The notes under the pieces are model-generated. The model did not search any database and was not told the origin of the DNA. It worked only from the letters and a program-made list of their open reading frames with translations. Positions 2,580-22,741 of a stretch of DNA of 64,000 nt are shown here, in pieces. This stretch comes from a virus. The number at the start of each line of letters is the position of its first letter. Positions within the stretch are counted from its first letter, which is position 1. The translations under genes were made by a program, and so were the position numbers. Location of the stretch: the IMG/VR virus record IMGVR_UViG_3300049460_000196, positions 49,104-113,103 of that record; one strand, 5' to 3'.

Positions 2580-2954
2580 CTATTCTGGGAGATCGCTTGG
2601 GTGCATGCCATAGAGGTCAGCTACTGGTTCACGTAAGACAGTTTTGAGGTTGGCAACCAAATCTTCCAGATAAGCGAGGCGAGCTTCCAACTCGCTCTTT
2701 TGCTCTTTGTGCATGGCATGAGCAGTTGCATAAGTGTAGTCATCAGCATACGATAAACTACCGTAACCAGAAAGACTGTAACCAATCAATTGTGCGAACT
2801 GATTTTGATCATCTTTGTCAACATCATCCATACAGGCGATGTCATTGAGGTTGATCACGTTGGTGTCAACTAACTGACGAATGATCTTATTGGCTTTGAA
2901 GCGAAGGGTGCCGTGCTGGTCGAGTTCCAGCGGCTGAATTGGATGTTTGGACAT
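2580..2954 (-). CDS. hypothetical protein
   Basis: ORF restarted at MSKHP, after the tRNA. Confidence 0.65.
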   Translation of the reverse strand: MSKHPIQPLELDQHGTLRFKANKIIRQLVDTNVINLNDIACMDDVDKDDQNQFAQLIGYSLSGYGSLSYADDYTYATAHAMHKEQKSELEARLAYLEDLVANLKTVLREPVADLYGMHPSDLPE

Positions 2955-2959
2955 GTTTT

Positions 2960-3031
2960 TGGTCCCTCGTACTGGAGTCGAACCAGTCAAGCACGCTTAG
3001 GAGGCACGCTGCTCAATCCCTGAGACGAGAG
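2960..3031 (-). tRNA. tRNA-Arg(CCT), compact fold
   Basis: no 8-9 linker, 6-bp anticodon stem, loop CT-CCT-AA, T arm, CCA. Confidence 0.75.
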
Positions 3032-3111
3032 GTAATGGTTAAGATATTGCCACTCTACTGGCAATACTTGATGCACACAATAATCTAAATACCAGTCATT
3101 GGAGACATTAT

Positions 3112-3654
3112 ATGAAAATTCTTATCACAGGTGCAAGTCGGGGTATTGGTCTTGCCACAGCGTCTTTGCTGACGTCTATGGGGCATACCGTGATTGATGC
3201 TAGTCGGAGTACCGGCCATGACATTCGTCGCCCACAATCATTCTTGAATCTACTGCGCGACTGCGATGTATTCATCAACAACGCATATTCATTCCAGGCA
3301 CATTTCGCACAAACGGAAGTGCTATATGGCGCATATGATCTCTGGAAGGATACCAATAAACACATCATCAGTATTGGATCAAACTCAGCAGATGGCATTA
3401 AGAATCATCCGCACCTATACGCCGTAGCCAAACATGCGTTGGATAAAGCATCCGAGCAATTGGCCAACACTGGATCGAAATGCCGTGTGACCAATGTGAG
3501 GTTTGGATTAGTTGACACCCAAATGAGTGCCAGTATTGTGGGATATCCTGGGCAGCGTCGTATCACTCCCCAGGAAGCCGCAGAGACGATTGTGTGGGCT
3601 ACGAATCAGCCAAGTGGATTGCTGATGAAAACCACTACAGTGCAACCGTGTTGA
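3112..3654 (+). CDS. short-chain dehydrogenase/reductase
   Basis: TGASRGIG, INNA and YAVAK motifs. Confidence 0.9.
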   Translation: MKILITGASRGIGLATASLLTSMGHTVIDASRSTGHDIRRPQSFLNLLRDCDVFINNAYSFQAHFAQTEVLYGAYDLWKDTNKHIISIGSNSADGIKNHPHLYAVAKHALDKASEQLANTGSKCRVTNVRFGLVDTQMSASIVGYPGQRRITPQEAAETIVWATNQPSGLLMKTTTVQPC

Positions 3655-5433: not shown

Positions 5434-5436
5434 GTA

Positions 5437-5649
5437 TTAGTCACGTTTGTTTGCCAGTTCGTTCAACTGTTTGCTGAGGTCGGCGTCGGTTTCGGCGGTG
5501 ATCACGCCCAGCTTAACCATGTTGTTCATGGTACCACGATACACTTCAAACTCGCGGTTATCGAACGACTCAACCATCACGTGCTCGCGACCAGTGTCGC
5601 TGTCGAAGGTGTCGTAGTTGTGTTTGATCTGCGCGTTGATGATATACAT
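5437..5649 (-). CDS. hypothetical protein
   Basis: 70 aa, AGGAG RBS. Confidence 0.6.
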   Translation of the reverse strand: MYIINAQIKHNYDTFDSDTGREHVMVESFDNREFEVYRGTMNNMVKLGVITAETDADLSKQLNELANKRD

Positions 5650-5677
5650 GGTCGCTCCTGCATTTGTGTAGAATCAC

Positions 5678-5706
5678 ATTATAGACGCAGATGAACAGAA
5701 AATCAA
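5678..5706 (-). promoter_or_regulatory. sigma70-like early promoter
   Basis: TTGATT-17nt-TATAAT, TGTTCAT in spacer. Confidence 0.75.
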
Positions 5707-5714
5707 GTAATATT

Positions 5715-5985
5715 TGGTGGACCAGAGCGGAATTGAACCGCCACGACGTCGCGAACGTCTTTCCCAGTGCGGAGGACTTGTACTCACCTGAGTAGCCCAG
5801 CGAAGCACCAATACATGATGCTTTGGTGGACTATGGGGACTCGAACCCCCTCTCCCTGGCCCGTAATGATCAGCCTCGTGGGGCTTGTCCCACAATCTCC
5901 GCCATTAGATGTAGCGGTGCTGAATCACGCTTCTGAAGCTACTCGCTTGAAGCCGATCATTACGAGCGACTGTTGCCAGTCACCC
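5715..5985 (-). ncRNA. structured tRNA-like RNA with two T-arm/CCA ends
   Basis: T arm+ACCA at 5715 and 5824, 18-bp upstream helix, GCAA tetraloop hairpin. Confidence 0.65.
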
Positions 5986-7405: not shown

Positions 7406-7454
7406 AGTCTTTTATGTGGTAGGGAGAGGGGGACTTGAACCCCCACGCCACTAT

Positions 7455-7539
7455 TGGTACCCTGAGCCGGAATCGAACCGGCACGCCTCACGGCGCTTGA
7501 TTTTGAGTCAAGTGCGTCTACCAGTTCCGCCATCAGGGC
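7455..7539 (-). tRNA. tRNA-Leu(CAA), nested in split tRNA
   Basis: class II cloverleaf, CCA. Confidence 0.92.
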
Positions 7540-7988
7540 TCATTCTGTTTATATTGACTGCGTTTCTTACCAGTAAGAGCTTGAGCAATTTTCGCTCTAT
7601 GTTCGGGAGATTTTGGCTTCCCTGCATTACCCTTACCAGCTTTACGTGCTTGCTCTACACCTCTACTCTGTGAGGCACATGCAGCTTCGTATCCATTCTT
7701 AGCGACATTCTGTTCCCAAAGCGTCATACCCGTATGGTCTACACGATCAATATAATTGTCTTTGTGCGTACCCCAATACAAATGATTGGGGTTACTGCAT
7801 TTTTCATTATTGCAAGCATGACACAACAAAGTTGTGTGAGTTTCGGGTATGGTAGTTCCCAAAGTTGCTGCCAACAATCCGCGAAATTCAACTGATTTGC
7901 CACCACGTTCAACACATGGAAGTTCAAGAGCTAAATGACTACGGCGTTCTTCTCTACTCAGAAGCATATGGTCGATGATATTCATCAT
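7533..7988 (-). CDS. HNH/His-Cys homing endonuclease with NUMOD3-like tail
   Basis: CHACNNEKCSNPNHLYWGTHKDN and KSPEHRAKIAQALTG motifs. Confidence 0.85.
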   Translation of the reverse strand: MMNIIDHMLLSREERRSHLALELPCVERGGKSVEFRGLLAATLGTTIPETHTTLLCHACNNEKCSNPNHLYWGTHKDNYIDRVDHTGMTLWEQNVAKNGYEAACASQSRGVEQARKAGKGNAGKPKSPEHRAKIAQALTGKKRSQYKQNEP

Positions 7989-8049
7989 CTATTTAGTAAA
8001 CACGGCTGCTGTGTCTACCAATTCCACCATCCCCCATAAGCGTATATTT

Positions 8050-8134
8050 TGGTGCCCAGAGCCGGAATCGAACCGGCACGCCTTGCGGCAGCGGATTTTG
8101 AGTCCGCCAAGTCTACCAGTTTCATCATCTGGGC
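8050..8134 (-). tRNA. tRNA-Leu(CAA)
   Basis: class II cloverleaf, CCA. Confidence 0.9.
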
Positions 8135-8207: not shown

Positions 8208-8286
8208 TGGTGGATGCGGTGGGCATCGAACCCACAAAGCCCAAGATTTTAAGTCCCGGAGGTATGCCATTTCCCGTCACGCATCC
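8208..8286 (-). tRNA. tRNA-Leu(TAA), short variable loop
   Basis: cloverleaf, loop CT-TAA-AA, CCA. Confidence 0.8.
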
Positions 8287-13209: not shown

Positions 13210-13962
13210 TGGGGGCGGGTGGAGGACTCGAACCTCCGACAACGTCCTTACAAGGGAATTGAGGGTTATGCTGTGACTATCCTGATCAGGATCGTGCCTT
13301 TCGGCTTCTACAGCTAAATAAGGTCGCGAGATTGCAGTCTCCACCTTTCTAACGCTTTCAAGGAGCATCAGCATGGATATTTATCCGCCAACTTTTCTTT
13401 ATATAAAACAACACGCAATTACTGGCAAACTTTACTTTGGCAAAACCGCAAAGGACCCAGAAACTTATTTGGGATCAGGCACTTATTGGCGCAAGCATAT
13501 CAAAAAACATGGAACAGAACATGTCATTACTGTGTGGTATTGTTTGTTTTATGACACGACAACAATAAGTGAATTTGCATTATCATTTTCGGCAATGCAC
13601 AACATTGTTGAATCTACAGATTGGGCAAATCTTAGGCCTGAAAATGGTCTAGATGGTAACCTTCCTGGAAATGTCCCGTGGAATGTCGGACTAGAAGCAC
13701 ACAATAAAGGCACAACCAGTCCAAACAAAGGGCGAACTTTGTCAGTTCGTTCTCAAGAACATAAAGACAAAATATCAGCAAGCTTAACTGGTAAAACCAA
13801 GTCTAGTAAACCTCAACCCAATCGAAAAGCACGGGTACATGTAAAACACGACACCGTAATCTGCCCTCATTGCGGAAAAACTGGCGGAAGTAATATAATG
13901 GGTAGGTGGCATTTTTCTAATTGTCCAGCTAAGACGTGCTCTACCAACTGAGCTAACCCGCC
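13210..13962 (-). pseudogene. split tRNA-Thr(TGT) (5' half 13932-13962, 3' half 13210-13254)
   Basis: GGCGGGT/ACCCGCC acceptor and CGTCT/GGACG anticodon stem across a ~680-bp insert. Confidence 0.85.
13373..13951 (+). CDS. GIY-YIG (Seg-like) homing endonuclease
   Basis: FLYIKQH...LYFGKT...YLGSG, NUMOD3-like segment, CPHC zinc knuckle. Confidence 0.85.
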   Translation: MDIYPPTFLYIKQHAITGKLYFGKTAKDPETYLGSGTYWRKHIKKHGTEHVITVWYCLFYDTTTISEFALSFSAMHNIVESTDWANLRPENGLDGNLPGNVPWNVGLEAHNKGTTSPNKGRTLSVRSQEHKDKISASLTGKTKSSKPQPNRKARVHVKHDTVICPHCGKTGGSNIMGRWHFSNCPAKTCSTN

Positions 13963-15192: not shown

Positions 15193-15271
15193 TGGTAGCT
15201 GTGGTCGGCCTCGAACCGACAGAACCCTTTGTTTTGAGCAAAGGAGGTATTCCAATTCCCTTCACACAGCC
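15193..15271 (-). tRNA. tRNA-Leu(CAA), short variable loop
   Basis: cloverleaf, loop CT-CAA-AA, CCA. Confidence 0.8.
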
Positions 15272-15653: not shown

Positions 15654-15731
15654 TGGTGGATATGGGGAGACTCGAACTCCCACACGACGGTCTCTGAAAC
15701 CGCCAGGTATACCAATTCCCTTCACATATCC
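15654..15731 (-). tRNA. tRNA-Leu(CAG), short variable loop
   Basis: cloverleaf, loop TT-CAG-AG, CCA. Confidence 0.8.
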
Positions 15732-22663: not shown

Positions 22664-22741
22664 TGGTGGTGTTGGGCGGCCTCGAACCGCCAAGCAACAG
22701 GATCTCGACCTGTTAGGTATACCAATTCCCTTCACAACACC
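22664..22741 (-). tRNA. tRNA-Leu(GAG), short variable loop
   Basis: loop TC-GAG-AT, CCA. Confidence 0.78.

Follow-up and report, generated by a model that had tools for sequence, protein, structure and literature searches.

A His-Me finger nuclease gene and a tRNA-Leu gene nested in a broken tRNA-Leu gene of a rhizosphere virus: a probable homing cassette

Organization of the nested tRNA-Leu locus

The window analyzed here is a stretch of 64,000 nucleotides, the right-hand 64 kb of one 113,103-bp virus record from a rhizosphere metagenome. ARAGORN counts 53 tRNA genes in it, along with a permuted tmRNA, and places all of them on the minus strand. The tmRNA (5435-5914) carries the tag ASLKCIVVP, and permuted tmRNAs were also observed near the nuclease described below in two other loci (L088 and L071).

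In the reading order of the minus strand, a tRNA-Leu(TAA) gene (8286-8208) and a tRNA-Leu(CAA) gene (8134-8050) are followed, after a 13-nt spacer, by the 5′ remnant of a resident tRNA-Leu gene (8036-8004), which was recognized in the sequence and has no tRNA call by ARAGORN or Rfam. Next come a leader, GTGTTTAC-TAAATAG (8003-7989), which includes the motif CTAAATA (7996-7990) and is a variant of a motif of the nuclease family, and an ORF (7988-7533) whose 151-aa product is a His-Me finger (HNH) nuclease that ends in a NUMOD3-like tail. The ORF overlaps a complete class II tRNA-Leu(CAA) gene with an encoded CCA (7539-7455; found by ARAGORN and, over the full model, by Rfam RF00005 with 57.1 bits), and its stop codon TGA (7535-7533) lies within the acceptor stem of this nested tRNA. 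The 3′ remnant of the resident gene (7454-7417, 38 nt) begins directly after the CCA of the nested tRNA, and the next protein gene stands 12 nt beyond it.

The 5′ remnant consists of the acceptor strand TGGGGGA (8036-8030), U8, G9 and the D arm, which extends to 8011; the remaining 7 nt (8010-8004) may represent position 26, the 5′ strand of the anticodon stem and position 32. The D arm shows 0 mismatches to the family consensus, and from base 2 on the remnant is identical over 25 nt to the beginning of an intact tRNA-Leu(CAA) gene in an unrelated viral contig (L001). The 3′ remnant comprises the tail of the variable arm (7454-7445), a perfect T arm (GGGGG/TTCAAGT/CCCCC, 7444-7428), the acceptor strand TCTCCCT (7427-7421), A73 (7420) and CCA (7419-7417). 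The acceptor strands of the two remnants are complementary in 6/7 positions, T1:T72 being mismatched. The alignment with L001 shows a loss of approximately 14-16 nt, which made up the anticodon loop, the 3′ anticodon strand and the start of the variable arm, and the resident gene destroyed in the window was probably a CAA isoacceptor. We also considered the 5′ fragment as a duplicated piece of the nested tRNA and rejected this reading, because its acceptor strand differs from that of the nested tRNA and pairs with the 3′ remnant instead.

The initial annotation, made from the letters alone, had described a Leu-type 5′ half, TAAATA, an HNH ORF, an intact tRNA-Leu(CAA) and a 3′ half in this order, and its coordinates proved right base for base. 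Its placing of the HNH stop codon inside the start of the nested tRNA agrees with the above, as does, by the alignment with L001, its statement that the outer tRNA lacks the anticodon, the 3′ anticodon strand and part of the variable arm.

A misjoin of short-read contigs through repeated tRNA sequence might be suspected behind such a layout, since in the source run the Logan contigs have breaks at 7494-7520 and 8060-8088, in tRNA sequence common to other organisms. However, the sequencing depths are alike (10.3 for the cassette piece vs 12.3 and 11.9), the acceptor strands of the nested tRNA lie on different contig pieces and nevertheless pair 7/7, and the same architecture was found in more than 50 independent assemblies. 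We therefore regard an assembly artefact as extremely unlikely. The contigs of one DNA run, probably that of the source sample, contained no joint skipping the cassette, and no RNA run was listed; the depth difference over 7494-8088 is too small and noisy to indicate a cassette-free subpopulation.

The nuclease and its association with tRNA-Leu

The nuclease of the window matched the HNH family PHROG 6254 (E = 2e-9) and gave weak, sub-threshold Pfam matches to zf-His_Me_endon, NUMOD3 and HNH_3. Only HNH/His-Me domains were returned by Pfam and PHROG, and no GIY-YIG domain was among them. An alignment of 48 sequences (A1) has 18 invariant columns, all of which are kept in the window protein. 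Searched against the PDB, the A1 family profile found I-PpoI only (residues 89-120, E = 0.002); the match spans the segment with the catalytic His and the metal-binding Asn and thus points to a beta-beta-alpha-metal core with a His...Cys...Asn motif. In this alignment, H57 and N78 of the window nuclease correspond to H98 and N119 of I-PpoI. Based on the kept invariant residues and the I-PpoI-like His...Asn segment, the window nuclease appears to be intact.

A confident AF2 model of the window nuclease (pLDDT 86) gave no Foldseek match in the PDB at E ≤ 0.001, and against I-PpoI itself only a 33-residue core was aligned (TM 0.19, E = 0.24), which does not extend to the whole fold. Because only this core is shared, the nuclease is not a member of the I-PpoI family; it is a His-Me finger enzyme with a His-Cys-box-like core and a NUMOD3-like tail.

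At least 193 relatives of the nuclease were present among the 90% clusters of 5.8 billion proteins, none of them named. The closest proteins of GenBank phages were 42-48% identical and belonged to Straboviridae, so that no close relative was found there; one of these Straboviridae relatives has its gene at the end of a tRNA array. The 113-kb record was found to contain no paralogue of the nuclease.

In IMG/VR, 202 nuclease relatives were detected. Their loci were examined first for 22 and then for the best 80 of the 202, and loci were merged at a cassette identity of at least 95%, giving 59 clusters. A tRNA-Leu gene stands directly downstream of the nuclease gene in 52 of the 59 clusters, with the anticodons TAA (26), TAG (24), CAA (1) and AAG (1). 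In 38 of the 52, the ORF extends 7-38 nt into the tRNA before its stop codon; in the remainder the two genes are separated by a gap of no more than 19 nt. The stop codon of the nuclease is often the TAA of the GTAATTGG D loop of the nested tRNA. Within the first 15 nt, nested tRNAs of several loci (L005, L007, L011, L017 and others) have GTAATTGG, as against GGAATTGG in the broken resident genes. This change in the D loop may serve as a stop codon, as immunity to cleavage, or as both.

A free 5′ tRNA-Leu fragment, missed by tRNA finders, precedes the start codon by 46-82 nt in 31 clusters. A 3′ remnant pairs with it in 7/7 positions in 10 of these clusters (the remnant ending in NCCA) and in 6/7 positions in 3, including the window, while fragments of different loci that were paired as a control gave 7/7 in 3% of cases. 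The recurrence of the nested arrangement across the clusters excludes chance. On the 5′ side, the breakpoints are concentrated at tRNA positions 26-33; the retained 3′ remnants vary from 6 to 38 nt, which means that the events were replacements with deletion and not clean insertions. The outer fragments were sought with a D-arm consensus, and a comparison of their D arms with those of the nested tRNAs is circular for this reason; we hypothesize that the D arm is the recognition site of the nuclease.

These pairings also bear on the possibility that no single gene was invaded and that pieces of two separate tRNA genes were brought together with an endonuclease gene and a tRNA when local DNA was deleted or rearranged. 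The window itself leaves some room for it, as its acceptor strands pair in 6/7 positions only and it has a dense tRNA array with several Leu genes side by side. On the other hand, both fragments resemble one intact tRNA-Leu(CAA) type in L001, 10 independent clusters of this layout show 7/7 pairing, and a syntenic pair of empty and filled sites exists (see below). A two-gene origin is thus very improbable, and the two halves are best taken as parts of one gene, as the complementary acceptor strands in 13 clusters of the nuclease family indicate. As judged by the compared sequences, the nuclease gene and the tRNA-Leu gene are established as one conserved unit inside resident tRNA-Leu genes of unrelated phages.

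Two further observations concern the family as a whole. Gene callers extended several nuclease ORFs (P0004, P0014, P0055, P0085) upstream, reading the leader motif as FSINK and the tRNA fragment as WWNGRH; such extensions are an annotation artefact and mark further invaded tRNA-Leu genes. In L120 (the same locus as L012), L053 and L051, a short hairpin occupies the place of the T arm of the 3′ remnant, and the bases before the hairpin can pair with the 3′ acceptor strand, forming a minihelix-like structure that ends in ACCA.

Mobility of the cassette and the fate of the resident gene

The clearest case of transfer is given by the contigs L017 and L018. Within ±3 kb, their sole similarity is a stretch of 734 nt (2922-3654, 98.6% identity), and the phages are otherwise unrelated. 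The shared stretch has its ends exactly at base 1 of the 5′ remnant and at the CCA of the 3′ remnant, i.e., the same element is present in unrelated genomes and the similarity ends at the borders of the target. The acceptor strands differ between the two loci, yet they are complementary within each of them. The contigs L017 and L012 have flanks that are 98-99.3% identical and cassettes of only 79% identity; the nuclease and tRNA variants at this site differ between them. In other viral contigs, 19 intact tRNA-Leu genes begin with the sequence of the 5′ remnant of L017, and an intact tRNA-Leu gene in L044 has a 3′ end identical to the 3′ remnant of L017. Since the gene of L044 matches L017 at both ends, about 30 nt of one gene were replaced. 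In the T stem of L017, the 5′ strand is of the cassette type and the 3′ strand of the resident type, which allows the 3′ crossover to be placed in the T loop.

Empty and filled sites were found for the nuclease family. A whole tRNA-Leu(TAA) gene is present in L132 and L131, while in the syntenic loci L143 and L130, whose flanks are 72-85% identical to them on both sides, the gene is invaded. The order in L143/L130 is the first 28 nt of the gene, the leader, the nuclease gene, a different tRNA-Leu(TAA), 13 nt and the 3′-terminal 6 nt of the old gene, beyond which the homologous downstream flank resumes. A tRNA promoter is visible upstream in L143, L132 and L131. Where the anticodon of the replaced gene can be deduced, the spare tRNA has the same one: TAG in L017, TAA in L079, TAA in L143 and probably CAA in the window.

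For the window, the searches with its own sequences gave no counterpart. Megablast against GenBank phages found no relatives of its phage, the flanking 100-aa protein had no relatives in IMG/VR, the JGI metagenomes or the set of 5.8 billion proteins, and a pattern search of metagenomes for a joined intact allele of the locus found none. For L005 and L007, a scan anchored on the neighboring tRNA-Thr returned those two contigs only.

One type of tRNA-Leu(TAA) gene was found in three states: whole in L132, overwritten in L143 and, in L136, carrying a group I intron (5528-5800; Rfam RF00028, 52.7 bits). The gene is interrupted after the CTT of the anticodon loop in L136, L141 and L142. This true intron invites the idea that the outer halves in the window are likewise intron-like or split and yield a functional tRNA once joined as RNA. 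However, no match to Intron_gpI of Rfam was obtained in the window at E ≤ 10, nor to group I intron models in 20 related loci; the insert is taken up entirely by the nuclease ORF and the nested tRNA. In split tRNAs of the Nanoarchaeum type the halves are jointly complete, whereas here the missing 14-16 nt include the anticodon. The absence of the anticodon and the 3′ anticodon strand from the DNA already refutes rejoining, to which we assign practically no probability. The occurrence of the nested layout in dozens of unrelated phages speaks for a mobile element and not for an intron.

Taken together, it is highly likely that the middle of a resident tRNA-Leu gene in the window was replaced by a mobile cassette of ~550 bp, which consists of the short conserved leader, the free-standing His-Me/HNH nuclease gene and the complete tRNA-Leu(CAA) and would home by cutting the target and bringing a spare. 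The initial annotation had proposed an intron-less homing element that invades a tRNA gene and offsets the damage with its own tRNA. The first part is supported by the syntenic empty and filled sites, the mobility and the lack of a group I intron, and the second by the tRNA-Leu directly downstream in 52 of the 59 clusters, with the anticodon replaced like for like where this could be checked. The comparison with an uninterrupted allele that it had suggested was thus made on the nuclease family, with L132/L131 as the intact and L143/L130 as the invaded tRNA-Leu(TAA).

We suggest that homing proceeds as follows. During co-infection, the nuclease would cut cassette-free tRNA-Leu genes near the junction of the D arm and the anticodon stem, where the 5′ breakpoints cluster (positions 26-33). 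Repair would then copy the cassette from the donor, with the universally conserved D arm and T loop serving as short homology, although this route is a guess. The broken tRNA gene could presumably no longer be cut, and the diverged spare tRNA would escape cutting and supply the lost tRNA. Landing in a tRNA gene would place the cassette behind the resident promoter, and its own leader motif is perhaps used in addition. The position of the nuclease stop codon inside the tRNA requires the ORF and the tRNA to be co-transcribed. Cleavage by RNase P at the 5′ end of the tRNA would leave a nuclease mRNA with no stop codon, a possible brake on dosage.

The leader motif GTGTTTAG[CT]ATAAATAA was found in 36 of the 59 clusters, its end lying 3-4 or 14-17 nt upstream of the start codon. 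From its resemblance to a T4 late promoter, we infer that the motif may act as a promoter. In the window, the leader ends 1 nt before the ATG, and its GTGT can pair with ACAC of the D stem of the remnant. Neither TATAAATA nor CTAAATA is enriched in the window, which leaves a promoter of the T4 late type unsupported for this genome and expression of the window ORF uncertain. This ORF has no Shine-Dalgarno sequence.

These features raise the question of whether the cassette homed in the past and is now a fixed, inactive or domesticated relic, with a nuclease that is unexpressed or has another role, e.g., to provoke recombination by which tRNA genes are amplified, as demonstrated for SegB. Such a state would fit the lack of a ribosome-binding site, the shortened leader, the lack of TATAAATA enrichment and the absence of a cassette-less variant from the contigs of the source run. 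It would also fit the many duplicated tRNAs that stand beside other endonuclease genes in the window array, as SegB drives the amplification of a tRNA locus (PMC13096335). However, the ORF has its full length with all 18 invariant residues, and a spacing of 3-4 nt between leader and ATG is one of the two common forms in the family and no sign of decay. We consider the relic unlikely, and the homing cassette is the reading followed below. It can be added that the window has two more tRNA-Leu(CAA) genes (8134-8050 and 15271-15193), so the nested spare is not strictly needed now.

Other endonuclease genes of the array and comparison with known systems

The tRNA array of the window contains four more endonuclease genes. 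One belongs to a second cassette of the same style but of a different HNH family (21608-21105, minus strand), in which a 5′ tRNA fragment (~21608-21575; D arm canonical) is followed by TTATAAATA (21560-21552), an HNH ORF (PHROG 10822, 21534-21181) and tRNA-Val(GAC), which starts 1 nt past the stop codon; this stretch showed no 3′ remnant. Another HNH gene (11063-10494, in the region 11063-10387, minus strand) is followed by tRNA-Thr(GGT). A PHROG-314 homing endonuclease gene (18793-18125, in the region 18904-18039, minus strand) lies between two tRNA-His genes, and the fourth endonuclease gene (13373-13951) is on the strand opposite to the array. In addition, tRNAs with Leu anticodons and a short variable loop (77-79 nt) were observed at 8208-8286, 15193-15271, 15654-15731 and 22664-22741, as well as in L025, L004 and L021; they occur both as residents and as the spare of some cassettes.

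Homing endonucleases normally avoid harm by residing in introns, inteins or intergenic DNA. Among those of phage tRNA regions, F-TflI, F-TflII and F-TflIV are HNH endonucleases of T5 that reportedly cut tRNA genes of related phages. They resemble the cassette nuclease in being of the HNH type and encoded in a phage tRNA region; to our knowledge, they have not been described as nested in a broken tRNA gene together with a spare. These T5 enzymes are named in PMC2330249. SegB of T4/T6, a GIY-YIG homing endonuclease, has a free-standing gene within the tRNA gene cluster of the phage (PMC2330249; PMC13096335). It recognizes a conserved T-arm element of tRNA genes (PMC2330249), cuts the tRNA genes of phages without SegB and is co-inherited with the neighboring tRNA genes (PMC2330249; PMC13096335). 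The cassette nuclease is like SegB in that its intron-less gene stands among phage tRNA genes. However, SegB is a GIY-YIG enzyme, is encoded between tRNA genes and shows no isotype preference, whereas the cassette nuclease is of the His-Me/HNH type, lies inside a destroyed tRNA-Leu gene, is tied to tRNA-Leu in 52/59 clusters and has an ORF that overlaps the tRNA.

Group I introns in the anticodon loop of tRNA-Leu(UAA), whether or not they carry endonuclease genes, occupy the same target gene at nearly the same place as the cassette, and both solve the cost of occupying a needed gene. The intron does so by RNA splicing, which restores the gene, whereas the cassette leaves the gene dead and brings a second one. 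A further parallel is mobE of Aeh1, a free-standing endonuclease gene splitting nrdA. "Fractured genes" with split inteins have been described as well (PMC2677866). Both cases are similar to the cassette in that a free-standing endonuclease gene stands inside a functional gene without an intron, but there the pieces still give a working product, while those around the cassette are dead and a replacement gene is carried. Finally, cleave-and-rescue (ClvR) is an engineered Cas9 gene drive in insects, which cuts an essential gene and carries a cleavage-resistant copy of it. The logic is the same as that proposed for the cassette, and the analogy is one of function only, since the cassette is natural, protein-guided and found in phages.

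Precedents thus exist for free-standing endonucleases that cut phage tRNA genes, for homing without an intron and for the splitting of protein genes by endonuclease genes. A full-text literature search found no description of a cassette that inactivates the tRNA gene into which it inserts and supplies a same-isotype spare. What appears to be new here, as far as sequences can tell, is a variant of intron-less homing in phage tRNA clusters that combines the killing of a tRNA gene with a spare of the same isotype.

As a tentative and rather doubtful extension, cassettes of a nuclease and a tRNA might represent a general natural "cut-and-rescue" drive that overwrites tRNA genes isotype for isotype, with the D arm and the T loop as portable homology between unrelated phages. 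Such a drive could build and shuffle large tRNA arrays, and the stop codon in the tRNA would tie nuclease dosage to tRNA processing, in that RNase P would generate a stop-less mRNA and tmRNA would tag it for degradation.

The cassette would be a fourth solution to the problem that homing endonucleases face, in which the target gene is destroyed and a working, presumably uncuttable copy is carried along. The conservation of tRNA genes across unrelated phages makes them a universal landing site with built-in homology. Such cassettes could explain the spread of tRNA genes between phages, the duplicates and dead fragments in large tRNA arrays, and the odd ORF extensions of gene finders through tRNA fragments. 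Furthermore, this uncharacterized family of at least 193 protein clusters would be a source of new nucleases specific for tRNA genes.
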